Of a DNA stretch of 64,000 nt, positions 5,162 to 56,883 are shown one piece after another (the first letter of the stretch is position 1; each line of letters starts with the position of its first letter). The notes under the pieces were generated by a model. It made no database searches and had not been told where the DNA came from. It saw only the letters and a program-made list of their open reading frames with translations. Source of the stretch: Nemertoderma westbladi (Eukaryota > Animalia > Xenacoelomorpha); assembly GCA_032718475.1 (NCBI GenBank), contig JAUCBJ010001574.1, positions 1 through 64,000 on the forward strand, in the 5' to 3' direction. The translations under genes and the position numbers were made by a program.

Positions 5162-5162
5162 T

Positions 5163-20057: not shown

Positions 20058-23000
20058 TGTAAAAGCTTTTGCGGATATAACAAGTCATTTTTCTCCACAA
20101 TATACCGTGTAGGTGTTTTAGCGGACATAACAAGCCATTTTCTGCCGCAATGCGCCTAATACTCTAAAAGACTGGAACTCAGATGACGAAATCTATCAGC
20201 TGATTTACTGTAAACGTGGAACATCTCTTTGTTCAGCTCGCTCAGCCAATCAGAGCGATTTTCATTTTATCTTGTACAGAGGCCTATGGAAAACCGCGCA
20301 ATGCATTACGGTTTTTGTTTACTTTCTGAGCCTCAGAACATCGGCTTGGAAATTATTTCTGTGCTTCTGTGGAAGTTTCAGACTTTGGCCAACATTAGAC
20401 GGCTTTGATTATAAGAACGTAAATCTATTATCTTATCATATTGTCACATTGTCATACCGAACTGCATTATTTTACTTCTGTTTACTGTCTGTTATTAATT
20501 GTTGTTATATGTTGATGGATATGTTGTTATATTTGGAGAATACCGATAAATAATCATAAAACCCCAATCTTCTTTTCTTAATTACTGAAAGTAAGAGGGA
20601 CCGGTTACCTGTAGCAATTGCGACTAACATTATAGTGGTTTTTGTGTGAATTAAATGCTATTTCATAATCCCTACATGTGTCAGTTGCTATCCTCCTTAT
20701 ATATGATCAAATTCAGTGACGGTCGGCAGATCAGTGTGAAGCAGTGTGAAGTCGTGTGCAGTAGTGTGACAGATAATAAAGCATCTCCTAAAGAATGCGC
20801 TATTTACGGAAATCAGTAGCCATCTAGTTGTGTTTAGTATAAGTCATAACTCTGTTTTTATACTTAAAGCGCCACAGTCCTAAAGGAACTGTTAATATTT
20901 CCCCGAAAGTGAATAATATTGTCAGAGATTATATAGTAACGATCAATCGAATAATACAGTAGGTCTGCAACGCAATAAATTTCAAAGCACCCGAATCCAG
21001 TCTCCCTTAACTGTGGGTGAATGATCGCGCATAGACTGGCTTCGGCTAATGTTACTTCATGTGCACTAAATAATTGTTATAGGCTAAAGTCGATTTATAA
21101 ACAAGAGGACACCTAAAATTGGCAGGTTAAACTGCTAAAGGTCTGAAAGCGCGAACAATAATAGATTTTTAGTTTCTTTATTGCACCGTAGGCAATAAAG
21201 TCGAAGGTACCGGTCGAACGGTAAGCTGTAGGCCTAACTGCCCAACTACCCGAACCGGTACTTACAGGTACAACAGTATTATTCGATTTTGATAATTATA
21301 TACCGGTAGGTCTTGATATTTAATCAGGGACGGCCGCCCTGGTTTTTTATTGGGATTTTACTTATTTCTGTCAGTTTTATTTATCTGTAAGTGTAATATT
21401 GAGCAGAAGGTGTGTAAGCCCGCTCAAATTGTACAGATAATTTGTAGGCTGGATTGTTGTCTGACTGTTGTTAAGTCTGAAGAGATTGCAGTGTGTGTAG
21501 AGTGTATGTCCGATAAAGTACTAGTTAGGAAGGTGGGGGCATCCAGTGCTGTAAGGTAAATCCCCCCCGAAAGAATAAGTCGTACTACTCGGTTGGAACG
21601 CCTACTAACTAACCATTTCGGAGTCTGCATATACTGTAGTTTATTTAGGCTTGACAGTAGTCTGCCAGCGTTTGGTCTGTATTTTGTTTGTGTAGTCTGC
21701 ACGGGTAGCGTAATATTTATTACTCAGAGTATATGCGAGTATTCGCAACCTTCATAACTCCCCAAGTTTATTCCTACAGTAATTGTGCTTGTTATACATA
21801 CCGTTATAGTTAAACTAACCCCGGTACTACATCAGGGCTGCTTGGCGTAGGTATATGACTGGTGATTTTATGCTCTAGTCACTCCAGCAGATACCGATGG
21901 TTCTTTTAGCTGTACAAGTATATTTAACTGCTGGTTATTTGTTGTATAAGTATTTGTTCCTAATTTAGGGTTTAGTGTACAGTACTTTCCAAAGGTAATT
22001 AGTGTGTAGGCAGTATATTTGTGTTGTAAAGTGGTTAATAGGCACGTTAGCTCTGGTTGGCTGCGGTAATTAACTTCTAGGTAAGGACACTCCGGGTACA
22101 TAACGTAGTACTTATAGAGCTGTAGAGCTAAAGACTATAAGTCGTCAGACGGTGGTATTTTCTTATCTGGACAACGCAATATATTTACTACTGCTTAATT
22201 ATTTTCAAATACCGTAGTTTCCTGTCCGTTTGTAAGAACCAGAAATTCTAACTCCTTGTTAGGCTGGTTTGTAGATTTCCTGTAAAATTACCCTAAAATT
22301 TGTATGTGTAACTTTTGTGTTTATTTAGAGATTGTAATCTCACGTAGTAATTGTATCTAAATTGTAGTGATAAGTAACTTAGTAAAGTAGAAGAATTTTT
22401 ATTAGTGTCCAACAAGTAGCACTTCACTGAGAGCGTTCAGCTTCTGTGCAGTGACTCCTTACCGAGAAATAATAACATTTATTTCAAACATTGACAAAAC
22501 CCATTATACGGGTATATATACATTATAAATCAACTCAAACCAATTTATAAAATAGTAGGCCTGTTATACATCAATTAGGTCTTAATATCAGTTGAGCTAC
22601 TGCTTGATAACAGTAATAAAGTAAAGGAAAATAACCCTAAAATTCAGAAATTCAGTTATTCTAAAATAATTGACATTACCGGTATTTATAGTAGGCTTAT
22701 TATATTTATTTCTATAAATTTGGCTGAGATTATATACCGGTATTCTGTAATTAATCCTAGTTTGTAATAATACTTATATATACTATAAGTGTATGCTGTA
22801 TACCGGTATTTACGATAGGCTTATTGTATTTATTTCTATAAATTTATGCTGAAATTATATACCGGTATTCTGTAACTAAACCTAGTCTATAATATACTTA
22901 TATATATACTATAAGTGTATACCGGTATTCTAATATATTATATATATATCACGTTACACTGAGTAACGGTATCGGTAATTGATCACTAGGCTTACAGTTG

Positions 23001-25937
23001 ATACTGAATTACTAGATTTGCTTTAACTGTCGTTATAGTAGTAGGCATTCAACTGTACAATCAAACATGGCTGACACAAAGCAAACTCTGTCAGATGGTC
23101 TCCTAGAAAGAACAGTCTGTGACTCAGACAGGAGTGCAGAACATCTGAGACCGAAGTCCAAGTCCCCTTCTACTGTAAGAAAGGTCATCCCTTCAGTAGT
23201 AGTATCAGACCCTAGGCTAGTCAAGCACCATAGGTCTATTATAGGCACTCGGGCTCAAGTCAAGCGGGACCAAGAGGCAGCTGTTAAACAGCAGCAACAC
23301 CCGAACCGGGAACTTATTTCACAGCGGCCCGATAGCTCCAGTAGTTCAGACACTGTAGAGTTGACACCCGAGATCGGAGCAAGGATGGCAGAAGCGGTTT
23401 ATTCGGATCCACTTCTCATTCTTCCTGCAGCCGTACTCACTAACTAGGGTATTGATTGCGGTGGAGGAACATCAAATCGATTGGGCGAGAAGTAAGCGAT
23501 CGACCAAGGACAGTTATGCGGGATACACAATGGAGGAACTGAAGTCTATTGTCGAGACGCAATGGTGCTTCCCCGGACCCGGACTCCCGTTTAACTTATC
23601 GGAAGCTGCCTGGGAAGACTTATACAGGATGGGAGTGGTAAAGGACACTAGAGATCCAGCTGTGTGGAAGAGGTCGGCAGCAGGATATGTACAGGGATTC
23701 TTCAGCTCTTTGGAGCGATTAGAGGAACAACTGTTTCAACAACCCCAAGGACCTCAAGAGCAGGGAGAGCTGCTTTATCAAGTTCGAGAACGAATCTTAT
23801 GGATCAGACTAATCCTTTCCGCCTTTGAGGAAGCCTCGAAAAGAAGCCAAGACACGTCGTTGCAAGTTGCCGTAAAGACTTGGTTCCAACGGGTGATTCT
23901 TAAAGTCCAAGGAACGACACAATGGAAAATTCAGCTAACTGAGCGCGCGACCAACGGAGAATCAACAGACGCTACCTTTTCTCAAGTGGAAAGCGACGTT
24001 ACATCAGAGAAACCTCAGAAGAAGGACGCTATTGACATCTATCTGTCGGACTATCAACGATTTATACGTGACAAAGAGTTAAGGAGACGGCTAGCTGGAC
24101 TTCACCCTAATAGTGAGGGAGCCAAATTTGTGTTAGACTCATTAGATGAGGAAATGTTAGCAGCGGAGCAGGCTAAATTTGATGAAAGCATCCTCATCGC
24201 TAGAGAACAGGAAGAACAATTAAAGAAAAAACGTATAGAAGACCGAAAGGCAGCAGCAGCGGCAGCAGCAGAAGTTGAAAGAAAAGTGGCAGCGGCAGCG
24301 GCAGCGGCAGAAGCGGAAAGAAAAGAGGCAGAAGCGGAAAGAAAAGCTGCAGCGGCAGCGGCAGCGGCAGCGGCAGAAGCGGAAAGAAAAGAGGCAGAAG
24401 CGGAAAGAAAAGCTGCAGCGGCAGTGGCAGAGGCAGAAAGAAAAGCGGCAGCAGCAGAAGCGGAAAGAAAGGTGGCAGAGGCAGTGGCAGCAGCAGAACG
24501 GAGGGCATCTGAAGAAACAGCCCAACTAGAGTTGGAAAATCTTCAAGAGAAGCAAGACTACTTAAATAAACGGAGAACAGCTAGTCAAATGCAGATGATA
24601 AGTCGATATACTCCCAAGAGACAGGGATTTACATCATCTGATGAAGGCGATACAACAGATCCTGAAGGCGGAGGAAATAGATCTCGTTCCTGCAAACGTA
24701 GAAGAACGCCCCACCGTCAGAGATTGCCTAATTTGCCCCCAGCTGTGAGAAGGCAACTAGCTAGTGCAGACTTAGGTAGTACAGAACAAACAGACCAAAT
24801 TATTAGAGTAGAAAGACTCCCTACTATAGTAGATGAGCCTGAAATAATTAGGCCTGTTCTCGAAGCCACCCCCTCTATGATAGAGACCCCTGTACTTCCA
24901 GAACCTAACTCTAAATTCCCTTTGCACAGTACTAAACTACCTGTGCCCAGTAGGACAGTTCCTGAGTCAATTCCGGTCCTGGACGCCAAGCGAGACATTA
25001 ACGATTTATCGCCCGTCGTCCCTCGTCTACCCGCTACTATGTTGGCGGCTCCCGCTTCGGCGGTAGAGTGGGTGGATGAGCGACGGCGGGGGATGGATCT
25101 CCTGCTCGGGCAGATGGAGGAACATCGGGAACATTCCTCCCAACAGGTCCGGGAGTTGGAAGGGTCTGTTCAACAGTTAAAGGGAACAGTAAGATAAGGT
25201 AGGTTAGAGTTGCAAGAAGTGCAGCAGAGTATCGCGTTAGAACGTGATAAGTTAGTAAATATACAAAAGGGTATACCACCACCCCCTGTAACAATGTGTC
25301 AACCTGTTAGGTCTGAAGTATTTCATGCGCAAGGTGTGGAGCCTACACGCATCTTTACTGCTAGTGAAGTAGAAACTCCTATAGTGAACCCTATTAAGGG
25401 TAATTATAAACCTGTTGATAATGATATTCCATATAGACCTGATCCTAATCTGAGAAATTTATATACCGATAACTCGATATTAAATAATACGATGGCCCAA
25501 GAAAGCTTTACGCATCAAATGGCTAGAACCGAAGCCCGTCAAGCGGTAAAATTGGGAGAGATCGTCAAGTTCAATGGAGATGAGATGAAATGGTTACCTT
25601 TTAATGAATATTATAAAGATAACATACAGAACTCTGTACTATCTAATGGAGAGAAACTTAGATTCCTCATCAAGTGCTTAGAAGGACCTCCCAAGTTAAT
25701 GGCGTTAAAGTTTATTGGACATCCAGATGGATTGAGACAAGTTTGGGATACACTAAACATCAGGTATGGTAATAGGACAAACATAGCTAGGTATTTGTAT
25801 GCGAAATTAGTAGCGCCTCGAAAGTTCCTTAGCAGCGGGATTATAGAGTTTTCCGATGAGATTCAGGAGATCTGTAGACAACTATATTGGTTAGGTAAGT
25901 CTCATGAATATCAGAGTTCTATGGTTATTGGAGCCGT
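20058..25937 (+). mobile_element. BEL/Pao element A: 5' LTR (20058-21157), ~1.9-kb leader, truncated gag
   Basis: LTR TGTAAAAGC...GCGCGAACA. Gag ORFs 23067-23447, 23452-25197 and 25210-25937, homologous to element D. Confidence 0.92.
23067..25937 (+). pseudogene. gag: gag of element A (frameshift and stop; DUF1759-like capsid region at the 3' end)
   Basis: KFNGDEMKWLPF...LSNGEKLRFLIKCLEG...RYGN and AEAERK repeats. Confidence 0.85.
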
Positions 25938-28900
25938 GACCTTCCAAGCATTCGATGAGGAATCTAAGTTTCTCTCCATTAGATAGCACAGAGTTCTGTA
26001 TATTGTTATGGGTGATCTCTTCAGATGCTTTCCGTTCTGCTTCTGCCGCTGCCACTGCCGCTTTTCTTTCCGCTTCTATCTCTGCCGCCTTTCTTTCGGC
26101 TTCTACCTCTGCCGCCTTTCTTTCTGTTTCTATCTCTGCCGCCTTTCTTTCGGCTTCTACCTCTGCCGCCTTTCTTTCTGCTTCTGCCGCTGCCACTGCT
26201 GCTGCCACTGCCGCTGTCTTTCTGTCTTCTATACGTTTTTTCTTTACTTGTTCTTCTTGGACTCTAGCGATACGGAGGCATTCATCAAATTTAGCTTGGT
26301 TCGCAGCTCTCATATCCGCATCGATTGCGTCCAACACAAGCTTGGCTCCTTCACTATTAGGGCTAAGTCCCTCCAGCCTTCTCCTCAACTCTTCATCACC
26401 TACAAAGCGTTGATAGTCTGACAGATAGATGTCAATAGCATCCCTCTTATGCGGTTTCTCTGCTGTCGCTTCACTTTCCACTTGAGAGAAGGTAGCGTCT
26501 GTTGATTCTCCAAGGGTTGAGCGCTCATCCAATTGAGATTTCCACGGGGCAGTTCTTTGAACTTGGAGACTCACCCGCTGTAACCAAGTCTTTACGGCAA
26601 CTTGCAACGACGTGTCTTGTCTTCTTTTCAAAGCCTCCTCAAAGGCAGATAAGATTAGTCTGATTCTTAGAATTCTTTCTCTAACTTGATAAAGCAGCTC
26701 TCCCTGCTCTTGAGGTCCTTGTGGTTGTCTAAACAATTGTTCTTCTAATCGCTCCATGGAGCTGAAGAATCCCTGTACATATCCGGCTGCGGACCTCTTC
26801 CACACAGCTGGATCGATGGTTTCCTTGGTTACTCCCATCCTGTGTATGTCTTCCCAGGCAGCTTCCGATAAGTCAAACGGGAGTCCGGGTCCGGGGAAGT
26901 TCCATTGCGACTCGACAATAGACTTCAGTTCTTCCCTTGTGTATCCCGCATAACTATCCTTAGTCGATTGCTTACTTCTCGCCTAATCAATCTGGTGTTC
27001 CTCCACCGCAATCAATAACCTAGTGAGTATGGCTGCAGGAAGGATGAGAAGGGGATCTGAATAAACCGCATCTGTCATCTTTGCTCCGTGCTCGGGTGTC
27101 AGCTCTACAGTATCCGCACTACTGGACCTGTCGGGCCGCTGAGAAATAAGTTCGCGGCTCGCGGGTTGTTGCTGTTCCGCTGCTTCTTGGTCCCACTTGA
27201 CCTGAGCTCGAGTGCCTATGATAGACCTACGGTGTTGGACTAGCCTAGGGTCTGATACTACTACTGGAGGGATGATCTTTCTTACAGTAGGAGGTGAGTT
27301 GAACTTTGGTCTCACACGTTCCACACTCCTGTGTGGGTCACAGATGGTCATATCTAGGAGACTGTCTGACAGGTTTTGCTTTGTGTCAGACATGTTTGTT
27401 TGTACAGTTGAATGCCTACTGCTATATTACAGTTAAAGCAAGTCTAGTAATTCAGTATCAACGGTTAGCCTAGTAATTAATTACCGATACTGCTACTCAG
27501 TGTAGCGTGATATATATATATAATATATTAGAATACCGGTATACACTTATAGTATATATATATAAGTATTATTACAAACTAGGTTTTTCACAGAATACCG
27601 GTATGTAATTTCAGCACAAATATATATAAATATATAATAGGCCTATTGTGAATACCGGTATACAGCTTACACTTATAGTATATATAAGTATAATTATGAA
27701 CTAGAATTAATTACAGAATACCGGTATAATTTCAGCCTAAATTTATAAATATATAATAGGCCTATCGTGAATACCGGTATACAGCTTACTTATAGTATAT
27801 ATATAAGTATAATTACAGACTAGAATTAATTACAGAATACCGGTATGATTTCAGCCTAAATTTATAGAAATAAATATAATAAGCCTATGGTAAATACCGG
27901 TATGTCAATTATTTTAGAATAATTGAATTTCTGAAATTTTAGGGGTTACTTGGTTACTTTGCTTTACTTGATTTAAGCTTATTTAAGCAGTAGTCCAACT
28001 GATATTAAGACCTAATTGTTGTAAGACAGGCCTACTATTTTATAAATGTATTGTATATATATAGTATGTGTAGTATATGCAGACTCCGAAATGGTTAGTT
28101 AGTATGCGTTCTAACCGAGTAGGACGACTTATTCTTTCGAGGGGGTTTACCTCACAGCACTGGAAGCCCCTACATTCCCAACTGGCACTTTATCGGACAT
28201 ACACTCCACACACACTGCAATCTCTTCAGACCCAACAACAGCCAGACAACAATCCAGCCTACAAATTATCTAAATAAGAAATATTACGCTACCCGTACAG
28301 ACTACACAAACAAAGTACAAACCAAACGCTGGCAGACTACTATCAAGCCTAAATAAACTACAGTATATGCAGACTCCGAAATGGTTAGTTAGTATGCGTT
28401 CTAACCGAGTAGTACGACTTATTCTTTCGAGGGGGTTTACCTCACAGCACTGGAAGCCCCTACTTTCCTAACTAGTACTTTTTCGGACATACGCTCTACA
28501 CACACTACAGTCCCTTCAGACTTAACAACAGTCAGACAACAGTCCAGCCTACAAATTATCTGTACAATCTGGGCAGGCTTACACGTCTTCTGCTCAATAT
28601 TAACCTACAAATAAATAAAACTGACAGAAATAAGCAAACCATACAAAGGAATAAGGGGTGATCAATCCCTAATCCCCTAACAGCCTACAATATACAATAT
28701 ATCACAATCGAAATAATACTGCTGTACCTGTACTGCTGTAGGTACCGGTCCGGTGGTTAGGTAGTCAGGCCTACTAGGTACCGGTTGACCGGTACTTCAG
28801 CTTTATTGCCCACTGCAATACAGAAGCTATATCTGTTATTGTTCGCGCTTTTAGACCTTTAGCAGTTTAACCAGCCAAATTGGGATGTCTTATAGATAAT

Positions 28901-30006
28901 GAATCGTCTTTAGCCTATGACGAGTATTTGATACACTACATTAGCCGAAGCCAGTCTATGCGCGACCATTCACCCGCTGGATATACCCGGGAGACCGGAT
29001 TCGGAAGCCTAACCTTATTGCGGTGTTGGCCTACTGTATTATTCGACTGATCGTAATATATAATCTCTGACAAATATTATTCACTTTCGGGAAATATTAA
29101 CAGTTCCTTTAGGACGTGGCGCTCTAAATATGTAAAGAGAGTTATGACTTAAACTAGACACAACGGGATGGCTATGAATTCACGTATATGGCGCATTCTT
29201 TAGGAGATGCTTTGTTATCAGTCACAATCATACACAATACTGCACAATGCTGCACACCGATCTGCCGACCTTCACTAATTTTAGTCACATATAAAGAGAA
29301 CAACAACCAATACATGTAGTGCCTATGAAATAGCATTAGATTCACTTCAAAACCACTTTAATGTAAGTCGCAATCGTTATATGTAACCGGTCTCTCTTAC
29401 CTTCAGTATATCAAGAATATTGAGGGTTTTGTAATTATTTATCGGTATTCCAAATATAATATTATTCCATCAACTGATATAATGAATAACCGACAGTAAA
29501 TAGCAGTAAAAATGCGGTGTTTGTAGATATGATATGAATTGTTAAGTTAAGATAACAGATATACGTTCTATAATTAAACCTACTAATGTTGGGCTAAAGA
29601 CTGAAAAACACAGATATTCCGAAGCCGGTCTTCTGGGCTCAGGACAAAATGTAAACATTGACCCATAATGCATTGCGCGATTTCCCGGAGGTTTCTGTAC
29701 AAAAAGCAGGAGAATCGCTCTGATTGGTTGACCGAACAAAGAAACACCAGAGAACAAGGAAAAAGCTACACGTGTACAGCTCAGTTGTTAGCTGTCGTCA
29801 TAGTAACTACACTGTTTCAAGAGGATCTAGCGCATTGCGTCATAGAATTGCTAATTATGTCCGCTAAAGTACACATACAGAAGAAATGGCTTTTTATGTC
29901 CCCTAAAACACCAGTACAGTAAGGATACGGCTTTTTATGCCTGTTAAACCAACTACAGAGTACTTTATGGGGAAAATAACCGGCTAATTCCGCAAAAGCT
30001 TTTACA
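25938..30006 (-). mobile_element. BEL/Pao element B: 5' LTR (28840-30006), partly deleted/duplicated leader, truncated gag (27393-25938)
   Basis: Reverse-strand homology to A and D. In-frame internal gag deletion ASEEIT|HNNIQNSV. Confidence 0.92.
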
Positions 30007-31461
30007 AATTATCTGTATAATCTGGGCAGGCTTACACGTCTTCTGCTCAATATTAACCTACAAGTAAATAAAACTGACAGAAATAAGTAACCTCCAAAAG
30101 AAACAAGGGGTGTACAGTCCCTAATCTCTTAAACAGCCTACTGGTATACAATATCACAATCGAAATAATACTAGTACCTGTACTGCAGTAAGTACCGGTT
30201 CGGGTGGTTAGGTAGTTAGGCCTACTAGTTACCGGTCGACCGGTACTTTTGCCCTTTATTGCCTACGTGCAATAAAGAAGCTATATCTGTTATTGTTCGC
30301 GCTTTCAGACCTTTAGCAGTTTAACCTGCCAAATTTAGATGTCTTCTAGATTATAAATCGACTTTAGCCTATGACGAGTATTTGTTACACTACATTAGCC
30401 GAAGCCAGTCTATGCACGACCATTCACCCGCTGGATATACCCGGGAGACTGGATCCGGAAGCCTGACCTTATTGCGATGTAGGCCTACTGTATTATTCGA
30501 CTGATCGTTAAGATATAATTTCTGACCAATATTATTCACTTTCAGGAAATATTAACAGTTCCTTTAGGACGTGGCGCTCTAAATATGTAAACAGAGTTAT
30601 GACTTACACTAGACACAACGGGATGGCTATGGATTCACGTATAAAGCGCATTCTTTAGGAGATGCTTTGTTATCAGTTACAATCATGCACACTACCGCAC
30701 AATACTGCACACTGATCTGCCGACCTTCACTAATTTTAGTCACATATAAAGAGAACAGTAACCGACTCATGTAGTGCCTATGAAATAGCATTAGATTCAC
30801 TCCAAAACCACTTTAATGTAAGTCACAATTGTTATATGTAACCGGTCTCTCTTACCTTCAGTATATCAAGAAGATTGGGGGTTTTATGATTATTTATCGA
30901 TATTCCAATATAATAATATTCCATCAACTGATATAATTAATGACCGACAGTAAATAGCAGTAAAAATGCGGTGTTTGTAGTTTACAAATAAGTAGTGATG
31001 TGTGTATGTGGTGTGATAACAGATATACGTTTCGATGATCAAGCCTACTAATGTTGGGCTAAAGCCTGAAAACACAGAGATTCCAAAGCCGGTCTTCTGG
31101 CATCAGGAAAAAAGGTAAACATTGACCCATAATGCATTGCGCGATTTCCCGGAGGTTACTGTACAAATAACAGGAGAATCGCTCTGATTGGTTGTCCGAA
31201 CAAAGAAACAAAGGAAAAGCTACACGTGTACAGATCAGCTGTTAGCCGTCGTCATAGTAACTACACTGTGTCAAGAGGATTTTAGCGTATTGCGACATAA
31301 AATTGCTAGTTATGTCCGCTAAAGTACACATACAGAAGAAATGGCTTTTTATGTCCACTAAAACACCGGTATAGTAATGAAACGGCTTTTTATGCCCGTT
31401 AAATCAACTACAGAGTACTTTGCGGGGAAAATAACCAGCCAATTCCGCAAAAGCTTTTACA
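30007..31461 (-). mobile_element. BEL/Pao element F: 5' LTR (30294-31461) plus ~290 bp of leader
   Basis: LTR termini on the minus strand; leader homologous to 28554-28839. Confidence 0.9.
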
Positions 31462-33000: not shown

Positions 33001-33610
33001 ACAGTATATATGATTGTTCTATCTGCCATAATCAAATTTCTAATGAACTTAGAGGCACATACTGTAGTTACCCTGCGTTACATTAGAGCTTGGGAAGCTA
33101 ACGCGGATCTCCATTGCGAATCACGTCACCGATACTATCCAGGACGTGCATCCCGGGTTGAGAATCTTATCATATTAGTAAAGTACTAACTAATGGCAAG
33201 TTACTGGCATGATAATTTTACTAAAATTTTACAATTACCACATTTTGCATTTGTTGGCAGTGATTTTTTATGTCCTTTTATTTGACTTTTTTGTCCTCCT
33301 TTTTTTACGAATTGTGCATAATGACCTTTGTTGTCCTTTTAATGACTTTTATTGTCCTTTTAATGACTTTTTATGTATGTATTTCTTCAAACTGTCAGAC
33401 TGATGATTTCTGGACTGTCAGACAGTTGGTTTCACTATGCCTGTGCCAAAACATTCCATGATTCCATGATTTATAGACTATGAGATAGAATTCCATATGC
33501 GCCTGTGGTAAAAGACTAAATTTAATAGTTTGTGGTTGTTGTCGATAATCGATTACCACATGACGTAGCAAAACACTCATTTTATAGCCAAAAACAATTA
33601 TCAATTGATG

Positions 33611-42600: not shown

Positions 42601-45600
42601 TAAAATAATTGATATACCGGTATCTACGATAGGCCTATTATCTTATTTCTATAAATCTAGGCTGAAATTATACCGGTACTTGTAATTAATTCTATTCCAG
42701 AATTATATATCCTACAAACTGTAAGCTGTATACCGGTATTCCGATAGGCCTATTATATTTTTATATATATTTGTGCTAAAATTATACCGGTATTCTGTGA
42801 TAAACCTAGTCTGTAATAATAGTTATATATACTATAAGCATACCGGTATTCTAATATATTATATATATCACGCTACACTGAGTAGCAGTACCGGTAATTA
42901 ATTACTAGGCTAGCAGTTAATACTGAGTTACTAGACTTGCTCAGACTGTAATACAGCAGTAGACATTCAACTGTACACATAAGCATGTCTGACGCAAAGC
43001 AGAATCTGTCAGACAGTCTACTAGATACAACCGAGAGCGAAGTGACAGCAGAGAAACCACATAAGAGAGATGCCATTGACATCTATCTGTCAGACTATCA
43101 GCGTTTTTTAGGTGATGACGAGTTGAGGAGAAGGTTAGAGGGACTTAGCCCTAATAGTGAAGGAACCAAGCTTGTGTTGGATGCCATCGATGTGGAAATG
43201 AGGGCTGCGAATCAGGCTAAATTCGATGAACAACTCCGCATCACACGAGTTCAAGAAGAACAAGTAAAGAAAAAACGTATAGAAGACAGAAAGAAAGCAG
43301 CAGTGGTAGCTGCAGAAGCAGAAAGAAAGGCGGCAGCGGCCAAGGCAAAGGCGGCAGAGGTAGCGGCCAAGGCAAAAGCGGCAGAGGCAGCGGCAGAGGC
43401 AAAGGCGGCAGAGGCAGCGGCCAGAGGCAAAGGCGGCAGAGGCAGCGGCCAGAGGCAAAAGCGGCAGAGGCAGCGGCCAGAGGCAAAAGCGGCAGAGGCA
43501 GCGGCAGAGGCAAAAGCGGCAGAGGCAGCGGCCGAGGCAGCGGCAGAGGCAAAAGTGGCAGAAGCAGAACGGAGAGCGGCTGAAGAAACCACCCAATTAG
43601 AATTGGAAAACATTCAGGAGAATCAAGACTGCATAAATAAACAGTTAACAGCTAGTAATATGCAGATGATGGATCGATCTACTCCCAAAAGACAGGGATA
43701 TACATCATCTGAGGAAGGCGATACCACCGATACTGAAGGCAAAGGAAATAGATCTCGTCTAAGCAGACGTAAAAGAACATTCCACCGTCAGAAATTGCCT
43801 GATTTGCCTCCAGCTGTTAGAAGGCAACTAAATAACACCAACTTAGGTAGTACAGAGCCCACAGACCAAATAATTAAAATAGAAAGACTCCCTACTATAG
43901 TAGATGAGCCTGAAATAATTAGGCCTGTTCTTGAAATCACCCCTTCGGTGATAGACACACCTGTGCTCCCTGAAACTACTTCTAAATTCCCTCTGCATAG
44001 CACTAAGCTACCTGTGCCCCGTAGAACTGCCCCAGAGACAGTTCAGGTCCTGGACCCCGAGCGAAATATTCATAATTTGTCGCCCGTTGTCCCTCGTCCG
44101 CCCGCTACAACGTTGGCGACTCCCGCTTCGGCGGTCGAATGGGTGGACGAGAGACGGCGGGGGATGGATGGATATCCTGCTCGGGCAGATGCAGGAGACT
44201 GTCCAGCAGTTCAAGGGCACAGTAAGGGAAAGTAGGCTAGAGTTGCAAGAAGTGCAGCAAAGTATCGCGCTAGAACGCGATAAATTAGTAAATACTCAAA
44301 AGGGTATACCACCACCCTCTGTAACAATGTGTCAACCTGTTAGGTCTGAAGTATCGCATGCGCAAGGTGTGGAGCCTACACGCATTTATACTGCTAGCGA
44401 AGTAGAAACTCCTATAGTGAACCCTATTAAGGGTAATTATAGACCTGTTGATAATGATATTCCCTATAGAACTGATCATAATCCGAGAAATTTATATACC
44501 GATAACTCGATATTAAATAGCATGATGGCCCAAGAAAGTTTTACGCGTCAAATGGCTAGAACCGAAGCCCGGCAAGCGGTAAAGGTTGGAGAGATCGTCA
44601 AGTTCAATGGAGATGAGATGAAATGGTTACCTTTTAATGAATATTACAATAATAACATACAGAACTCTGTACTATCTAATGGAGAAAAACTTAGATTCCT
44701 CATCGAGTGCTTGGAAGGATCTCCCAAGTCAATGGCGTTAAAATTTATTGGACATCCAGATGGATTAAGACAAGTTTGGGATACACTAAACATCAGGTAT
44801 GGTAATAGGACTAACATAGCTAGGTATTTATATGCGAAATTAATGGCGCCCCGAAAGTTTCTTAGCAGCGGGATTATAGAGTTTTCCGATGAGATTCAGG
44901 AGATCTGTAGACAACTAGATTGGTTAGGTAAGTCTCATGAATACCAGAATTCTATGGTTGTAGGAGCCTTAGCATCTACTTTGCCCAAGGGTGGAGTAGG
45001 TACACGCTGGGACAAGAAGGTGTTATATCTGATGGAACAACAACGACGAGACCCTACCATGACTGATCTCATGTCATTCTTAGATAGAGAAGTGAAATTA
45101 CAGCTCCTAAGGCAGTCCAGAGAGAAGACATTGGAAAACAAGGTAAGTGAGAAACCCGTTTCTAGGAGAAGGGTAACACCAGTATGTTATACCGACGACG
45201 GTGAAAGCCAAACTTCTCAAGGAGAGGACAGCGGGAAAGACACTGACAGATCTTATTATGTCAATAAATTGCCTAAAGATCAGGTAAGTAAATCCGAGTC
45301 TCGACCCAATGACAGAAGGGAACCGGTACAAAAAACCCTTCCTACGTCTCCTAAAAGAATTCAGGTGAGAAAGCCCGAGGAAAGAACAAGTGTGCACCAC
45401 ATAGCACAGGTTAAAGTAAGTAACATCAAGCCGAAATGTGTGCTGTGCGACGGGCCCCACCATTTAAATGCGTGTGATAAATTCCTGAGGAAATCACTAA
45501 AGGATAGACGTGAAGTCATGTGGGATAAGCGGTTGTGTTATAATTGCCTCAGACGAGGACACCAACGGCGAACCTGTAACTCCGACGCAAGGTGTGCAAA

Positions 45601-48600
45601 GTGCGGCGCAAAACATCATATCTTGTTGCACACGGAATTCGAACGAAACAGCCCGAGTCAGGTAAGTGAGTCCGAACTACATGTCCAATTCAGTGATGTG
45701 AACGACACTGATCAATCTGAGATGGAAGGATTCTATACGGACGAGTTCTCCGACCAAAACGAATCCTGTTACCTAATAAACACCACCGCAGTGTATCGAG
45801 CACTCGTGTATGAGAAAGACACAGACAGCGACCTTACCTTAACTACTTCCGATCAACAACCATCTTGGAAAGCGCCAACTTCCAATATCGGAATCCGAGA
45901 ATTTCCTGTAGTCCAGTTACGGGTCCACGGACCTCAGAAGAGCTATATAGTGAACGCCCTCCTGGACTCCGGTAGCACAGGAACATTCATCGATAAAGAA
46001 CTAGCCGAAGTCATCTTTGCTGGACAACCCAAGTTCCGAACCAAGCTAAACGTGTCAGGAATCATGCAAGTTTGGAAATCTACAGTAACAGCTGATTATT
46101 ATGTAGGAGCGTTGTCCACCCCCCAGGACGAACTAGGAGAACATAGCATAAGGTCAGTGAAAATGGTGGCTATAAAGAACTTCGCTACTACTCAAGCAGA
46201 CCTTTATAATTGGGACGAGGATGAGAGCATCCAACATCTTAACATACCTCGATTCCAGACTGATTATCCTGGAGTGCAAATACTCATCGGCCAAAACGCG
46301 CATGAGGCGCTGGAGACATTAGAGAAACGACCTGCTCAACCGCAGCCACTACAGACCTATGCGGTAAGAACTAGAGTAGGTTGGTACCTTACTGGACCTT
46401 CCCGTAGAACGCTCAGGGAAAGACTGCTTCAAGATCGCGTCTGCCAGGTGAGTGAATGGGAAGATGATACTAGTGAGGGAGACGACCCAACTGAGGGAAC
46501 ACCACACTCCTCAGATAATGACAATCTTAGCTCCAATGTAGATCAATGGAGATATTGCCCCAAGAAGTTTAATCCAACGGACATCGCTTCCAGAGGAGCA
46601 ACTCCTCAAGAACTGACAGATACTATAGACCGGTTAGGTGAACCCGACTTCCTGAGTAAGGAGAATGAATGGCCTCCCCATCTTACTCCGACTGAGATTA
46701 GACCAGCCAAGGGAGCGGAGAAAGTCGAACCTGAAACCCGGACGGGTGGATCGGAGTTATTTGAACCCGGGATAGATCTGTCGGTATTACATGTTGCCAG
46801 GGACGACGCCGTGGATCTGGGCCTCCCCTCCGCGAGTGGATCCTTCATGAAGATCAGAGAGAGCGATTGGAGCTCTGGAACATCAGACGTCTCGCAGGGA
46901 CTCTCACCTCTCCTGCAGAGAGCGACGGACCACTATAGCTCCTGGAATCGGCTTTGTGACGCCGTCATATACTTTGAGCGATGTTTCTATCGTCACTATT
47001 CCAGGACGAAGAGGAAACCTGGAATTGTATTCAGGATGCAGCGACTCAATCACCCAGTCGGTCGTTTGTGTTTATCGGAAGGGAATGGAGGACTCTCCGG
47101 AAACTGTGGAAGGCAAGATTCTCTTCCCACGACCACCTCCCTAATCCTTCAAACATCTAGGGACTCCATAACGTAACAACATATGGAGTGGGTGTGTGAC
47201 TCTATTATTTTATATTATTTTATTATTTTTATATTTATGTATGTATTACTATGTAATTCTATTATAATCGTTTTCTTTAATTTTATTCAGTAGAATGTTA
47301 TTTTAGCGATTATTTAGTAGATTAGTGCAATATATATTCGCGTTTATTACTTAATTACGTATATATTATATTTAATGCGACGGCAAGAAATAATTCTTTT
47401 CCTTCTTCCTTACTGCTCCGTATTCTATTATAAATACGTAACTACAGTAAGATGAAATGTCCGTACTTATTAAAGTACAATAAAGCCACTACTATATTCA
47501 AGTATTATTGGTAGGCAGAGTATTAGGAATGCAAAGTTCAGATCCTCGTGTCTCGGCTAAACCAAGCTCTGGGTAGACCTTGGAAACGACTTGCCTCTTC
47601 ACACTGACATTGCTTCGTGCGATATTGCTCTCATACCGTATATTAAATAATACATATAGTAGCGTGATGTCCCTTTAACAGTAGCGTATAACGCAAAATA
47701 AATCTGTTAAACCCTTTGACCATCTGTAATTCTAGTCGATTAAGATATCGTGGCACCCACCGATATACTTGAAAGACAAATTATAGAATCAGTGGTTAAC
47801 GTCACCAGACAAGTTCTGGAATAAATCGGTGCCCATCTCAAATATTAATTATTTAATATTTGCAAATCTAATACGTCAAAATCTGTAAAATTCAGATCCT
47901 TCAACAATTCTAGTCAATTAAGATATCGTAGCATTTACCGATATTCTTAAAAAAGACAATTGTCATAGAATTAAGGATCTTGTGTCCCTAGACATGTTCT
48001 AGAATCAAAATATGTCCATTTAATTATCAAATAATAAAATTTCAGGGAATAAATTTAAATTCATGCCTTTAATGAATTTAATAAATTGCCATTTTTACGC
48101 AATTTATAAAGTTCCCAAAATTTCATTAATTAATAGATCAAGGGAGCGGAGATTTATCTTATCATGCGTATGAGTGTGTGAAAGTCTCCCAAACATAGTC
48201 AATAGCCGATAAAATTCATAAAGTCATGTATAAAACAGAACATTGACTATTAAAGAATACTATTAAATAACATCCCAGATCTGTATGCATTGGAACTACC
48301 CTAATTCTACCACTAGCTTTGCATAATGTCACCATAGCAACAACCACGCTAGAATTAGAATTGAGTTAAAAGAACAATAGAAAGCTTGTCCCATTGAATA
48401 GCATAGGGAATAATAGCGCACTACTAGTATCCCAGGATACATACTAATACAGTGACATTCTGGAAGGCATTGACTAACGGACAAATGGCCCGAATGTGTG
48501 TAATTTGTGACAAGTTGTGTGTGTGGTATTTGTGAGTTTATAGGTGAATGTTACTACTAAGGTGTGTTTACAGTAGCTAGTCGCAATCGTAAAAGTAACC

Positions 48601-51399
48601 TAACTCTCCAAGGAAAACCTGAAGTACATCTAAGTCTTTGGGACGGACAGTCGAGTGACTTGTGTCGGTTGTCGTTGTCGTTGTGCGGCTACGTCGTTGG
48701 CGAAAGTACAGCGGCGACGACACATCGGCGCTGAGGATCTCGTACTGTCCGGGGTTGATTGGGGTAGGCAGCGACGCCCGCTCGCCTAAATATAAACTCA
48801 TTATAATATGGATAAACTCATATATAGCAGATATGACGGAGTTGATAGAAGATGGTCTTGGTATCGGGGAGCAATATACTCTATTTTTGCAAGCGTTTGT
48901 TGATAGCTTAATACGCGGCGACGTTAGTCCAACTGCTGCGGAGGACGATGGTCGTTATATCGAACCGCCAATGTCCCAAGAGCAGCCCGCGCGCGAGTTG
49001 GACTATAGAAAATTCGCTGCTCGATATACGCAGCGTAATGGTACGTATATGGTCTTCTTAACAACTGGTCATCCTATCGATTTACACAATACGGACTATG
49101 TCGACTATATATCCTGCCCAGCGGAGTCGGAACCATAAACTGAAATTCGAATGCGAAAATTCTATTCGAAATCGGCTCGAAAGAAAAGACACTAAAGAAA
49201 CAAATGGACGCGGTAACTCCAAAGTATATTTGGAATTCTTGATAGAAGCATTGTAACAACAAATAAATGTCACCCGCGTTTACCTTACCAGACGTGCGTC
49301 TTTGGTATTATTACGATAAACGCCCTAGACCCAAATAATAAACGGAAAGACATAAACATCCATGTAAACCGAAACTTGTTGACGTATCACCTATGCTCAC
49401 TCGGCTCGAACGATCCTGGAGTAAACCTACAATCAGCGTCCCGGAATACTCGGTCAAACCTCCTCATTCCTTAGTTGGACCTCAGACCTGCGATCCTGGT
49501 GGTGTCGCGGATCCTCGCGGACTGTATTCACTGTTCAAAGATCTAGTGCTACCCTAACAATTAATCGGTAACACTCCGACAGTGATTTCTAGCTAGCCGC
49601 CCATCTTACCTAGCTGGATTATGACGCAGACACCTAATATCATTATCCAACCGTATGGTCGTCCCGTTTAACGCGATACAACCCTTCATCAAAGTGAAGG
49701 AGAGCGTTGTACGAAACGAGTTAAACGCTATTCTATAAAGATCAAAAAGAAACCTGCGTTTGTTCAGATAAACGTAAGTTACAACAGTAAGTCCAATCGA
49801 TAAACAAATTGGCCTTATCTCAGTTCGATTGGGAAACCTCGAATCTCAAAGAAGATATCAAGCTTAGAAAACCCTATTCTCTGCGAGAGTTTTGGACGAA
49901 CGTATCCCATGACAAGCGGAGGAAAATCAGCTCGAGGAGAAGCATATCGAAATGGACGAGACACCGACCGTAAACCCAAACCTTTTAATGCAATCATATT
50001 GCACCCTTCACCCAGGAGTTATGGCCCTCCTAGTAAAGTGGCTTCCCCCAAAGAGAAAATGGCTCTTGCTAGCTTTAAAAAACTGCGTAAAAGTCGTCCG
50101 CGCAAGAAAGACTAACTGTTTAGAGTATCTTTATGTTTTAGAAACTGTGATTTTTATATTTTATAGACTGAAAATCCCATTTTCTGGGAGCGGTGTAAAA
50201 GCTTTTGCTGAATTGTCCGGTTATTTTTCCTTATTTTTCCCGTAAAATACTCTGTAGTTGGTTTACCAGGCATAAAAAGGCCGTGTCCTTGCTGTACTGG
50301 TGTTTTAGCGGACATAAAAGCTATTTCTTCTGTATTTGTACTTTAGAGGACATAATCCGTAATTCCGTGACGTAAAAGCTCGATACTCTTGAAAACAGTG
50401 TCGCTACCATGACGACGGCTAGCAGCTGATATTGCCACGTCGACGTTTCTTTGTTTCTCTGTTCTCTCGTTGTTCAGGTTGACCAATCAGAGCGTTTGTT
50501 GTCTCTGTGTTGGAGGTATATACAGAAACTCAGTAGTTCAGTGTTATGTTTTTGCCCAGAGCCTAAGAACCGGCTTTGGCACCTCCGTTTTTCAGTTTTT
50601 AGTCTTACACTAGTAGGTTTAATTATAAAGGGCATATATCCTTTAACTCATGGAATCACTGCTAACTGATCATACATACTGACTGCTGAAACATTGCAAA
50701 CTCATAACAATCAGTGTTTTCATTGTTGTTTTATACTGCTATTTACCGTCAGTTCTTCATAATATGGTTGATGAATAATTATATTTGGAATAACGATAAA
50801 TAACCCCGAAACCCAATATTCTTGATATACCGAAGGTAAGAGAGAAGGGTTAAAGAATAACGATTGTGACTTATGTTAAAGTGGTTTGAAGTGAATCTAA
50901 TGTTATTTGATAGACCCTACATGAGTCAGTCTGTGTTCCTTTTATATGTGACTAAAATCAGTGAAGATTGGCAGATTAGTGTGCAGTATTGTGCAGCATT
51001 GTGTATGAGTGAGTCTGTTAAAGAAGCAATTCCTAAAGAATGCGCCATATATGTGAATTATAATTAAGCCATATCGTTGTGAGTAGTTTAAGTCATAACT
51101 CTGTTTATATAGATAAAGCGCCACGTCCTAAAGGAACTGTTAATATTACCGAAGGTGAATAATATTGTCAGAGATTATATAGTACTGTCAGTCGAATAAT
51201 ACATTAGGCTTACATAGCAATAAAATTAAACCGTCGAACCCAATCTCCCGGGAATATCCAGCGGGTGAATGATCGCGCACAGATTGGTTTCGACTAGTGT
51301 AGTGAATCAAATACTTGTCATAGACTAAAAACCGATTTAATATCTAGAAGACATCTTAATTTGGTGGGTTAAACTGCCAAAGGTCTGAAAGCGCGAACA
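39621..51399 (+). mobile_element. BEL/Pao element C: complete ends, non-autonomous; LTRs 39621-40826 and 50194-51399
   Basis: 1206-bp LTRs with one mismatch seen (40280 C vs 50853 A). TSD CCCCA at 39616-39620 and 51400-51404; the empty site is visible in RTE copy 1 near 15525. PPT GGGAGCGG at 50186-50193. Confidence 0.97.
42985..47176 (+). pseudogene. gag-pol: gag-protease of element C with RT/RNase H and integrase largely deleted
   Basis: DUF1759-like region, BEL-type triple knuckle (CVLCDGPHHLNAC, CYNCLRRGHQRRTC, CAKCGAKHHILLH) and protease ALLDSGS. The frame jumps directly to NPTDIASRG; no YxDD. Confidence 0.9.
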
Positions 51400-54300
51400 C
51401 CCCATCATCATTATGATGATCTAAGGACATGCGTAGAACATAGTCAACCACAATAATGAACAAGAATGGTGCAAGTGTGTCTCCTTGGAGGACGCCCCAT
51501 AACACTTCAAATGGTTCTGTGTCACCATCAACAGTAGACACAAATGTTGTCGAACCATCGTATACTGATCTGATTGCTGCAATAATTTCACCAGGAATCC
51601 CATATAATGAAAGTATGCTGAACATACGTGAGCGAGAGACTGAATCAAAGGCCTTGAAGAAGTCAACAAAGATAACAGCCAGATGCCTGTCTTTCTTTTT
51701 TGATAACTCTTCAATTATCCTTCTAAGTGCCAAAATGGGCTCCATGGTCCCACGACCTTTACGGAACCCATTCTGATTTCCACGTAGCAGTCTCTCAATG
51801 GGATCCCTGATGCGATTTAATAGAATTCTATTGTATAGTTTTGCAGCAATCGAGATCAATGAGATTCCCCGAAAAGAACCATAGAGTGTTAGGTTGCCCT
51901 TCTTGGGAACTGGCACCAACTTATTTGTTTTCATTTCTTGTGGGACTCTTGTTGTACGGTACATGTCTACTATGATGGGATAGATGAGCTTTAAACACTC
52001 AGGTATTTTAAAGACCTCAGGGGGAACACCATCTACTCCACTGGCACGATTGGTCTTAATGCTCTTTGCAGCAGCCTTCACTTCTGCAAAGGAGATATCG
52101 CCAATGGGAATATCTGGGAGTACAGACTCAGACACTTTTACTTCTATAAAGTTATCAGGCAATACCCTGTCATTATTGAGGAGCTTTTCAAAGTGGGCTT
52201 TCCAACCATTGAGGCGATCGGCTGGTGATTCAGCCTTAACCTTGGTGGTTGGTTGGCTTTTCCGCCCAGTAAGCAGATTGATCGATTTCCATGCTACGGG
52301 TCATGGTGTATAAATATACTGTAATATAATAATAATATAAATTATGATATTTTTTTTCGATTCGTTATTCCCAAATATGCTTCGCTTCGTTTCGTTTTCC
52401 TTTCGTTAAAGGCCCTTCCGCGCAGCTTTTTTTTGAGCTTTTTTTCAAGCTTTTTTTAATTAAAACAATTTCTAGGAATTAATTGCTTCAAGATGAATCT
52501 GCGAATTTTCGAATACTAAAACCTAAAATATAGAATAAAGCTCAAAAAAAGCTTGAAAAAAGGTTTGAAAAAAAACTAAAAAAAAAAGCTTGAAAAAAGC
52601 TAGAAAAGAAAGCTCAATAAATATCAATAAAATAAATAAGCCATCCCTGAATATAATATAATAATAATAATTATTATTATTATATTACCTCCAGCGAACG
52701 CTAATTATTGCAATCGTTTAATGCCTACATCTCAGGTGTTTCTAAACGAATTCAGTCATTGTTATACTGTATGTTTGGAATCCTTGCAACGTAACTTTTC
52801 TATTGATATAGATAAAACCGGTTCCTTACAAAAGCAAACCACGCCACAACGTGGGGGGTCATCAGGGGGGATTCTCCCAAGGACGTATTGATTCTCCCAA
52901 GTAGGGCGTACTGTATGTGTGACATCGATTTTATTATTTGAAAAAGGACCTTACACAGAACGATTAATTAGAATTATATTAAGGCAACGGCAACAATGAA
53001 CAGCGCAAATATCTTAGACTTCATGATTTATAGTGCACAAAGTACATGTAGGAAGTTTAGCCCAAAATCGTCACTTTAGCCAGTGAATCGCTAATATGTG
53101 TGACCGACTGTAGCGTGACCGTACTGTATGTATCTGTGTATAAATTGTCAATTTTATTCACAATATGTATAATTTTATTTACGTCATACAGCCGTACTAT
53201 CTTCACATGTTCATTGTTTATAATGGTTATACGTGTCTCTTGTAGGCCTATATGTTCTTGTTAGCTCTATTTTATTTTTTATATTTAATGTCAATTAAAC
53301 AATTCCAATTCCTATCCCGAAGACACTTATAATTACAGTATATTTAATTCTTTTTATCCGTTTTCTAGCAATACAATAATCGATACGCAATCTGACAAAA
53401 TTTATAGTAAACACAGTATGCCCGATCCACCTTCACGCGGACTGAGCGCTATTTTCCTGAAAAACCGACATTGTCGGTTTGTTTTGTTATTCGCCGCAGC
53501 TTCCAAGCATGGTGAGGCCTCTTTTTCTCCGTCATATTTGAAGTTGCGCTGCCCCTACAGCCAAATCTAAGGGCTGAAAATTGGAGGCAACTGGCCTCCA
53601 CGAGAAGACTTATACTGTAAAGGCTTTTGCGGATATAACTAGTCATTTTCCCCGCAAAGTACTCTGTAGGTGTTTTAGCTGACATAAAAAGCCGTTTTTC
53701 TTACTGTGTAGGTGTTTTAGTGGACATAAAAAGCCATTTTTCTGTATGTGTACTTTAGCGGACATAACAAGCCATTTTATGCCGCAATACGCCAAAATAC
53801 TCTTAATACAGTGTGGCTTAGATGACGAAATCTATCAGCTGATTTTGATGTCGATGTGGAGCTTTCTTAACTCTCTTTGTTCAGCTCACTCGACCAATCA
53901 GAGCGATTTTCATTTTATTTTGTACAGAAGCCTACGGGAAATCACGCAATGCATGACGGTTTTTGTTTACCTTTTTCCTGAGCCCAGAACATCGGCTTTG
54001 GAATTATTCTTAGTTTCAGACTTTAGCCAAACATTCGACGGCTTTGATTATAGGAACGTATAACTGTTATCGCAGTGCCAGACTCATACCAAACTGGACA
54101 CACAAATGCAGGTCATATTATACTATACGTACGGTTACCTGTAGCAATTGCGACTTACATTATAGTGGTTTTGGAGTGAATTGAATGCTATTTCATAATC
54201 CCTACATGTGTCAGTTACTATTCTCCTTATATATGATCAAATTTAGTGAAGGTCGGCAGATCAGTGTGCAGCAGTGTGCGGTAGTGTGCATGAGTGTGAC

Positions 54301-54594
54301 AGATAACAAAGCATTTCCTAAAGAATGCGCTTTATACGAAAATCATTAGCCATCCCGTTGTGTTTAGTGTAAGTCATAACTCTGTTTACATACTTAAAGC
54401 GCCACGTCCTAAAGGAACTGTTAATATTTCCCGAAAGTAAATAATATTTGTCCGAGATTATATATTAACGATCAATCGAATAGTATAGTAAGTCTACACC
54501 GCAATAAGGTCAGAGCCTCCGAATCCAGTCTCCCTTAACTGTGGGTGAATGGTCGCGCATAGGCTGGCTTCGGCTAATGTAACTTTATATCTTA

Positions 54595-54859
54595 CTAGCA
54601 GGCAATACCCGAGGCATGTTACCCGGTATTTCCCGCTACCGGCATATGCCTACTGGCGTACTGGTACCGGTATAGGCCTACTGACGTACCGGTACCCAGT
54701 ACCGGTACCGAACTTGAATTATACTTTTCGAAAAGTGGCCTATAACGACCGCTGGTTAAAGTTATACACACATGCCAAGTTCCAGCGCAATCCCTCCGCC
54801 CGTTTTGGAGGAGTTCGAACACAGAAAGAAAGAGAGAATTTGATTTTTATAGGTATAGA
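54595..54859 (-). mobile_element. Short non-autonomous Helitron inserted in LTR D
   Basis: Absent from the other LTR copies. The minus strand reads A|TC...CTAG|T with a subterminal hairpin (AATACC...GGTATT, 54604-54630). No clear TSD. Confidence 0.75.
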
Positions 54860-56883
54860 TATGCAACAAATACTTGTTATAGGCTAAAGTCGATTTATAA
54901 ACTAGAAGACACCTAAAATTAGCGGGTTAAACTGCTAAAGGTCTAAAAGCGCGAACAATAACAGTTATTGTAGTTTCTTTATTGCAACGTAGGCAATAAA
55001 GTCGAAGGTACCGGTCGAACGGTGAGCTGTAGGCCTAACTGCCCAACTGCACGAACCGGTACTTACAGGTACATCAGTATTATTCGATTTTGATAATTAT
55101 ATACCGGTAGGTCTTGATATTTAATCAGGGACTGCAGCCCTGGTTTTTATTGGGATTTTACTTATTTCTGTCAGTTTTATTTATCTGTAAGTTAATATTG
55201 AGCAGAAGGCGTGTAAGCCTGCTCAGATTGTATAAATAATTTGTAGGCTGGATTGTTGTCTGGTTGTTGTTAAGTCTGAAGAGATTGCAGTGTGTGTAGA
55301 GTGTATGTCCGATAAAGTACTAGTTAGGAACGTGGGGGCATCCAGAGCTGTAAGGTAAATCCCCCCCCCCCCCCCCCCCCCCGAAAGAATAAGTCGTACT
55401 ACTCGGTTAGAACGAGTACTAACTAACCATTTCGGAGTCTGCATATACTGTAGTTTATTTAGGCTTGATAGTAGTCTGCAGGCGTTTGGTCTGTATTTTG
55501 TTTGTGTAGTCTGTACGGGTAGCGTAATATTTATTATTCAGAGTTTATGCGATTATTCGCAACATACACAACCCCAAGTTTATTCCTACAGTAATTGTGC
55601 TTGTTATACATACCGTTATAGTTAAATTAACCCCGGTACTACATCAGGGCTGTTTGGCGTAGGTAAAGACTGGTGATTTTATGCTCTAGTCACTCCAGCA
55701 GATACTGTGGTTCTTTTAGCTGTACAAGTATATTTAACTGCTGGTTATTTGTTGTATAAGTACTTGTACCTAATTTAGGGTTTAGTGTACAGTGCTTTCC
55801 GAAGGTAATTAGTTTGTAGGCAGTATATTTGTGTTGTAAAGTGGTTAATAGGCACGTTAGCTATAGTTGGCTGCGGTAATTAACTTCTAGGTAGGAACAC
55901 TCCGGGTACATAACGTAGTACTTATAGAGCTGTAAGCTAGAGACTATAAGTCGTCAGACGGTGGTATTTTCTTATCTAGACAACGCAATATATTTACTAC
56001 TGCTTAATTATTTTCAAATACCGTAGTATCCTGTCCGTTGTAATAACCAGAAATTCTAACCCCTTGTTAGGCTGGTTTGTAGATTTCTTGTAAAATTAAC
56101 CCTAAAATTTGTACGTGTAATTTTTGTGTTTATTTAGAGATTGTAATCTCACCCCTTAATTGTACGTAATTTGTAGTAATAAGTAACTTAGTAAATTAGA
56201 ATTATTTGTTTTAGTGTCCAATAAGTAGCACTCCACTGAGAGCGTTCAGCTTCTGTGAAGTGACTCCTTACCTAGAAATAATAACATTTATTTCGAATAT
56301 TGTCAAAACCCATTAAACGGGTATATATATATATTATAAATCAACTCAAACCGATTTATAAAATAGTAGGCCTGTTATACATAAATTAGGTCTTAATATC
56401 AGTTGGACTACTGCTTAAATAACGGTAATAAAGTGAAGTAAAGTAACTAGGTAACCCTAAAATTCAGAAATTCAATTATTCTAAAATAATTGACATACCG
56501 GTATTTACGATAGGCTTATTATATTTATTCTATAAATTTATGCTGAAATTATATACCGGTATTCTGTAATTAATTTAGTCTATAATTATACTTATATATA
56601 CTACAAGTGTAAGCTGTATACCGGTATTCACGGTAGGCTTATTATATATTTATATATATTTATGCTGAAATTATATACCGGTATTCTGTGACAAACCCTA
56701 GTCTGTAATAATACATATATATATACTATAAGTGTATACCGGTATTCTAATATATTGTATATATATCACGTTACACTGAGTAACGATATCGGTAATTAAT
56801 TACTAGGCTTTTAGTTGATACTGAATTACTAGACTTGCTTTAACTGTAGTTCTAGCAGTAGGCATTCAACTGTACAAATAAAC

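Follow-up and report, generated by a model that had tools for sequence, protein, structure and literature searches.

The BEL/Pao family of the window

The window studied here is a stretch of 64,000 nucleotides (nt), positions 1-64,000 on the forward strand of contig JAUCBJ010001574.1 from Nemertoderma westbladi. It hosts copies A to F of a retrotransposon family with long terminal repeats (LTRs), and the coordinates of all features are collected in Table 1. Our subject is the primer-binding site (PBS) of this family, which is an exact complement of a segment of the element's own LTR and probably serves self-priming in place of priming by a transfer RNA (tRNA).

The family is BEL/Pao, as an initial annotation made from the sequence alone had proposed. 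The DUF1759 domain (PF03564) is found in copies A, C and D (E-values 2e-12, 6e-13 and 6e-12), C and D each host two CCHC motifs, and C carries the protease motif DSG. The Pao peptidase family (PF05380) matches copy D with an E-value of 1e-37, and the YMDD, FGDAS and integrase zinc finger motifs of D follow in BEL/Pao order. The best homologues among the 120 matches listed are 39-45% identical, PF05380 is found in all 120 of these, and the sources named among them are cnidarians, echinoderms, molluscs, a nemertean, fish and one bacterial bin. The family thus combines a gag with DUF1759 and CCHC motifs, a Pao-type order of pol, and TG...CA LTRs with a short duplication and a purine tract. Membership of Tf1/sushi, a group with Ty3/gypsy chromovirus pol, was considered and rejected, as the pol is Pao-type.

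Copy C sets the LTR end independently. Its two LTRs (39621-40826 and 50194-51399) are each 1206 bp long and show a single difference, and the copy has TG...CA ends, a purine tract upstream of the 3′ LTR and a target duplication of 5 bp (CCCCA). The reverse transcriptase (RT) and RNase H are missing from C through an internal deletion near 46521-46539. Since its LTRs are nonetheless near-identical, copy C was probably mobilised not long ago by enzymes acting in trans.

Complementarity between the LTR and the primer-binding site

In all five copies with a 5′ LTR (A, B, C, D and F), a segment of that LTR and the 11-12 nt directly behind the LTR are exact reverse complements. The segment lies 360-445 nt into the LTR and 710-890 nt from the PBS, the first base of which adjoins the LTR end GCGCGAACA in each copy. 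The sequence TGG is absent from the first 27 nt after every one of these 5′ LTRs. Each PBS 11-mer is unique in the 64 kb to its PBS and, when complemented, to the LTRs of the same variant. The five pairs, the lack of TGG and the placement of the would-be primer 3′ end at the boundary of the unique 5′ region of the LTR (U5) had all been described in the initial annotation, and each of these claims was borne out.

The pairs also covary, as had been described. There are four independent variants, since B and F carry an identical one, and every one of the six substitutions between the variants is mirrored in the partner. Measured against the B/F variant there are two changes in A, three in C and one in D; all of them recur in the PBS, that of the terminal pair in C included. 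Each copy pairs with itself at 11 of 11 positions, while pairs between variants reach only 7-10 of 11. Shuffled LTRs produced a match in 3-15 of 5000 trials (at most 0.3% per copy). One qualification is that the 11-mer of D is nearly palindromic. The complementarity is real and far from chance.

The segment is hardly more conserved than its surroundings, with an identity over the six LTR copies of 0.81 against 0.78 for the whole LTR. This is what is expected if the PBS is copied and the two sites are not both under selection. The segment drifts at the background rate and its partner, 710-890 nt away, always follows. The simplest account of this matched drift is that one is templated by the other in each cycle, and the earlier proposal that the PBS is recopied from the primer fits both the identity values and the lack of any unmatched PBS change.

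It had further been claimed that the 3′ LTRs of C and E have no PBS-like flank. For C this holds, the flank being the target duplication. The flank of E opens with ATAA (9745-9748, minus strand), the initial 4 nt of the PBS expected for E, and diverges after them; this agreement may reflect chance or a PBS-guided insertion.

In public contigs the family is large and variable, and among thousands of short, variable pieces, 18104 in X1 and 3634 in X3, none spans both segment and PBS. A search of sequencing runs listed no RNA run containing the family, a result that carries no information on expression. The exact LTR-end pattern had zero matches in viral or metagenome contigs, and a protein scan of viral contigs gave 19 pattern matches, none of which was confirmed.

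A proposed model of self-priming

We consider it probable, from the pairing and its covariation, that the family primes in the manner of Tf1, with its own LTR segment, the predicted 5′ terminus of the RNA, as the primer. Transcription would start at the segment, or 1-2 bases from it. The 5′ end of the RNA would then fold onto the PBS over the 710-890 nt of the repeated region (R) and U5. Cleavage directly 3′ of the segment, for which the element's own RNase H is the probable enzyme, would leave a free 3′-OH for minus-strand synthesis. The strong-stop DNA would extend as far as the base that follows the segment and then jump to the 3′ R, from whose copy the segment could be restored. Finally, plus-strand synthesis would copy the retained primer, so that the PBS is rewritten and the pair kept in step.

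Related loci and predicted spliced primers

BEL/Pao elements are generally described as primed by tRNAs. Our scans returned 96 related loci, 80 from metagenomes and 16 from genome bins. A direct repeat surrounds pol in 40 of them, 27 have flanking sequence past the 3′ repeat and 22 were kept, the loci left out being near-copies (L040 and L054) or without a CA end (L049, L080 and L086). A fixed window of 400-600 nt stood in for the LTR in L025, L045 and L056, and the LTR end of L095 was set by hand.

With strict splice sites, a self-match of at least 10 nt between PBS and LTR is found in 16 of the 22 loci, spliced in 13 and contiguous only in 3. The controls gave 6 matches in 672 swapped pairs and none in 378 downstream offsets. 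The 16 loci represent about 10 families and are hence not independent. When only GT and AG were required, a spliced match of at least 11 nt was found in 14 loci, and the donor is GTRAG in 12 of these 14 matches, though this was not a search criterion. In these relatives the PBS is complementary to a predicted exon junction across a GTRAG...AG intron of 72-450 nt within the LTR (L002, L005, L009, L011, L013, L025, L035, L045, L048, L050, L082, L083, L090 and L095). The match of L011 is a spliced one of 11 nt that a pyrimidine filter excluded, and L052 and L085 appear by eye to be one mismatch short. The upstream side of the putative split primer supplies 3-8 nt. The offset of the PBS from the LTR is 0-4 nt in the relatives and 0 in the window family.

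Three of the loci (L017, L056 and L076) host a TGG site 2-5 nt after the LTR instead of a self-match. These elements resemble the window family in having the same pol family, TG...CA-type LTR ends and a purine tract, and differ from it in the tRNA-type site and the lack of a self-match. In the trees a branch of moderate support (89/83, not starred) has these three loci on one side; L090 was left out because it is too short. Copy D has a branch of length 1.6-1.7 and an uncertain position in these trees, which were built without named BEL/Pao reference elements, and could be placed on neither the tRNA side nor the self-match side. The family is therefore assigned to none of the named clades (Sinbad, Sparrow, Surcouf, Suzu, Pao, BEL, Tas, Dan and Flow).

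The predicted intron is kept in both LTRs of the relatives. This would mean that priming falls to the spliced 5′ copy and that new LTRs are made from an unspliced template. The window family carries its putative primer unsplit. A spliced primer was considered for it and rejected, the best canonical match being 4 nt, and the X4 joint ending at the upstream AG was rejected as a product of splicing because it has non-GT ends and a 23-nt side.

These results raise the possibility of a broad BEL/Pao lineage that has given up tRNA and uses the opening 10-15 nt of its RNA as the primer. For most members, host splicing would assemble this primer from a piece of 3-8 nt and the exon after the intron, so that only the spliced 5′ copy primes and the unspliced 3′ copy transmits the intron. 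The window family would then be a fast-evolving, unsplit form. We judge the chances of this wider proposal to be about even.

The loci found in bacterial genome bins (L081-L096) are BEL/Pao elements, and this sequence is most likely animal host DNA.

The start of the RNA and competing explanations

The transcript starts predicted in the initial annotation (near 20421, 40062 and 54060) have indirect support from several observations that favour a start of the RNA at the segment. When whole RNAs are folded from the segment start, the core pairs have a probability of 0.89-0.97 in five of five copies. With 45 extra upstream nt the pairing is near 0 in three of the five (A, C and D), and with 150 it is near 0 in all five. 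Folding controls with a swapped PBS gave pair probabilities of 0-0.24 in six of six cases. Past the core, pairing reaches no further than in shuffles (mean z -0.15 over 22 elements), and an upstream extension of the pairing was rejected on the same figure. The paired stretch begins with a pyrimidine-A step in 9 of 12 families against 4.5 expected, a post hoc comparison with p 0.009.

The conservation of the LTR changes at the segment. Identity is 0.64-0.78 upstream of it and mostly 0.79-0.94 downstream, and the lower upstream values fit the observation that the unique 3′ region (U3) is more variable than R-U5, as treated in part of PMC3601003. The minimum for the whole LTR lies in the 50 nt after the segment, where identity is 0.16 counting gaps and 0.48 without them.

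A number of points weigh against the proposed start. No TATA box lies 25-30 nt before the segment. The sole TATA-like word is 11 nt before it in A-D and is lost in E and F, a position that could indicate a start just after the segment instead. A conserved acceptor-like TTTCAG about 40 nt upstream is left unexplained by a start at the segment, and a strict Tf1 model requires a first exon of 3-8 nt in the spliced relatives. A test for short repeats after the primer fell below significance (p 0.056). Long-range folding predictions are weak as evidence, and the folds of B and F remain paired with upstream extensions. The duplexes are A/U-rich, at -8 to -12 kcal/mol, and the phased segment and PBS variants number four, all within one window.

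The TATA-like word, the acceptor-like sequence and the need for such short first exons are also what favours a self-primer other than the first nucleotides. The segment would then belong to U3 or to the interior of R, and the source of the primer would be the 3′ copy of the RNA, an extended 5′ fragment or a short LTR transcript acting in trans. This we regard as unlikely. Where relatives have a poly(A) signal, it follows the primer end at a distance of 0 to about 130 nt, which means that this end is not the poly(A) site, and a spliced 3′ template would presumably erase the intron that the relatives have kept in their LTRs. The absence of pairing past the core and the folding of A, C and D likewise favour the segment start.

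The pairing might instead be a selected RNA structure, used in packaging, translation or poly(A) control, with another molecule as the true primer. Priming is something that we infer, and the leader beside the PBS has other predicted hairpins. We nevertheless think this improbable, because the helix stops at the U5 edge, which is the required start of the minus strand, and does so with a mirrored change of the terminal pair in C. Furthermore, each of the six changes gives a Watson-Crick pair in both variants, at a divergence close to the background, and there is no tRNA-type site nearby.

A third explanation is that an internal tRNA fragment or other small RNA of the host is the primer and the LTR match is secondary. 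Priming by half-tRNAs is known in Ty1/copia lineages, according to passages of PMC6317226, and our tRNA look-up covered the 64-kb window, where there are none. Between PBS variants up to 4 of the 11 positions change, and each variant tracks its own LTR, so that one host RNA would not suffice and this account is very improbable. Chance, an error of assembly or the conversion of short inverted repeats at the DNA level is largely excluded and has the slimmest prospects: the sequences are A/T-rich and that of D nearly palindromic, but the position is fixed in all copies, the matches are unique and rare in shuffles, the pattern recurs in 16 of 22 independently assembled loci, and 11-nt arms more than 700 nt apart should be a poor substrate for conversion.

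Self-priming from the first nucleotides, then, is the reading that we prefer. Some further observations concern the same RNA. The splice-donor-like GTAAGA of the window family lies 160-200 nt downstream of the segment. A hairpin just 3′ of the PBS is predicted in five of five leaders (in A at 21173-21197), followed by a second with GTACCGG arms. Two-fragment folds, made in view of the accessory U5-leader stem around the PBS in Tf1-type priming, gave no helix between U5 and leader that is common to the copies, and a search of Rfam over 39621-43000 gave no match.

Relation to known self-priming elements

In Tf1 of Schizosaccharomyces pombe the initial 11 bases anneal to the PBS, and RNase H cleaves between the 11th base and the 12th (passages of PMC7175516), and the PBS is copied into the end of the complementary DNA (passages of PMC11042837). 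Self-priming is discussed for Tf1/sushi, Tcn1 and the TAR lineage of copia in sections of PMC6317226 and for Tj1 of S. japonicus in part of PMC4600332, whereas tRNA sites of gypsy elements are treated in parts of PMC13524379. The window family is like Tf1/Tf2, Tj1, Tf1/sushi and Tcn1 in having a PBS of about 11 nt beside the 5′ LTR that complements its own LTR and no tRNA. It differs from the Tf1 group, which is Ty3/gypsy, in being BEL/Pao, in the 710-890 nt between primer and PBS, and in that start and cleavage are predicted only. The mode of action is most likely Tf1-like, though the element lies outside Tf1/sushi. The putative intron-split primer of the BEL/Pao relatives has no mention for Tf1 in the passages of PMC7175516 and PMC11042837.

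The PBSs of B, F and D (28835-28839, 30289-30293 and 54958-54962) begin with ATAAC, the first five bases of the Tf1 PBS as given in a passage of PMC11042837. This agreement is probably a coincidence.

A closer parallel in method is the TAR lineage of plant Ty1/copia elements (e.g. Houba and Osr-1). There, too, self-priming was predicted from sequence by the same test, namely at least 10 complementary bp starting 0-5 bp after the LTR (passages of PMC6317226). The TAR lineage belongs to another superfamily with another domain order, and to plant hosts.

We found no published case of BEL/Pao self-priming in a search that did not extend to Repbase Reports, to the majority of subscription papers or to supplements on bioRxiv, so a prior description is possible. 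By term count, the available parts of PMC554778 (on Sinbad) and PMC3118150 (on BEL/Pao in metazoans) hold zero primer or tRNA terms, and the available part of PMC6238403 makes no mention of a PBS or primer.

If our model is correct, tRNA-independent priming would extend to a third LTR superfamily, after Ty3/gypsy, where it was shown, and Ty1/copia, where it was predicted. It would explain why tools that search for a PBS by its tRNA match return empty results on many elements of the BEL/Pao type, and it would probably put such elements beyond control by the supply of tRNA and by 3′ tRNA fragments. The mirrored changes would be a natural record of PBS rewriting from the primer. Two points go beyond the initial annotation: most of the readable relatives carry a putative primer split by an LTR intron, and self-priming has also been proposed for Ty1/copia, in passages of PMC6317226. 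A primer built by splicing would couple the onset of reverse transcription in these relatives to host splicing.

Other features of the window

Table 1. Features of the family in the window, in window coordinates
Feature	Position	Strand	Remarks
Copy A 5′ LTR	20058..21157	+	1100 bp
A LTR segment, predicted self-primer	20421..20431	+	
A PBS	21158..21168	+	exact complement of 20421-20431
A leader and truncated gag	21169..25937	+	DUF1759 in 25198-25986; end head-to-head with B
Copy B 5′ LTR	28840..30006	-	1167 bp; truncated internal part down to about 26009
B LTR segment	29552..29563	-	
B PBS	28828..28839	-	
Copy F LTR	30294..31461	-	1168 bp; then about 290 nt of leader joined to the B LTR
F LTR segment	31016..31027	-	same variant as B
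F PBS	30282..30293	-	
Copy C 5′ LTR	39621..40826	+	1206 bp, TG...CA; target duplication CCCCA before it
C LTR segment	40062..40073	+	
Stretch directly 3′ of C segment	40074..40123	+	most variable part of the LTR over six copies; inferred first strand-transfer junction
Candidate splice-donor-like GTAAGA	40263..40268	+	present in A, B, C, E, F; deleted in D
C PBS	40827..40838	+	
C gag-protease frames	42952..47176	+	DUF1759, two CCHC, DSG
C polypurine tract	50186..50193	+	
Copy C 3′ LTR	50194..51399	+	one difference from 5′ LTR; segment copy 50635-50646; CCCCA after it
Copy D 5′ LTR	53616..54957	+	1342 bp, including an insertion of about 270 bp
D LTR segment	54060..54070	+	near-palindrome
D PBS	54958..54968	+	
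D broken gag-pol	56833..64000	+	nine in-frame stops between 61253 and 63758
D motifs	60095, 60194; 62060; 62594; 63734	+	CCHC (two); RT YMDD; RNase H FGDAS; integrase zinc finger
Copy E 3′ LTR	9749..10842	-	purine tract upstream; D-type segment 10517-10527
Partial LTR, A-like	6111..6461	-	ends before the segment

The copies are rearranged in several places. A and B are truncated head-to-head inside gag (25937-26009). The joint between the F leader and the B LTR is a 4-nt overlap (30003-30010), which suggests a template switch or recombination. The sequence ATAATT, found in the left flank of B and the right flank of E, was considered as a target duplication and rejected; it is ordinary leader sequence, and D has the same.

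Pieces of a different RT-bearing element, with RVT_1 matches and DUF6451, flank copy C (51356-52300, 14637-16081 and 38728-39621), and C appears to have inserted inside it. The window also hosts two inverted repeats of 419 nt that form a pair, along with several tandem arrays whose units are 10, 20 and 68 nt (4106-8029, 4727-5220, 8074-9039, 18890-19900 and 33558-34237).

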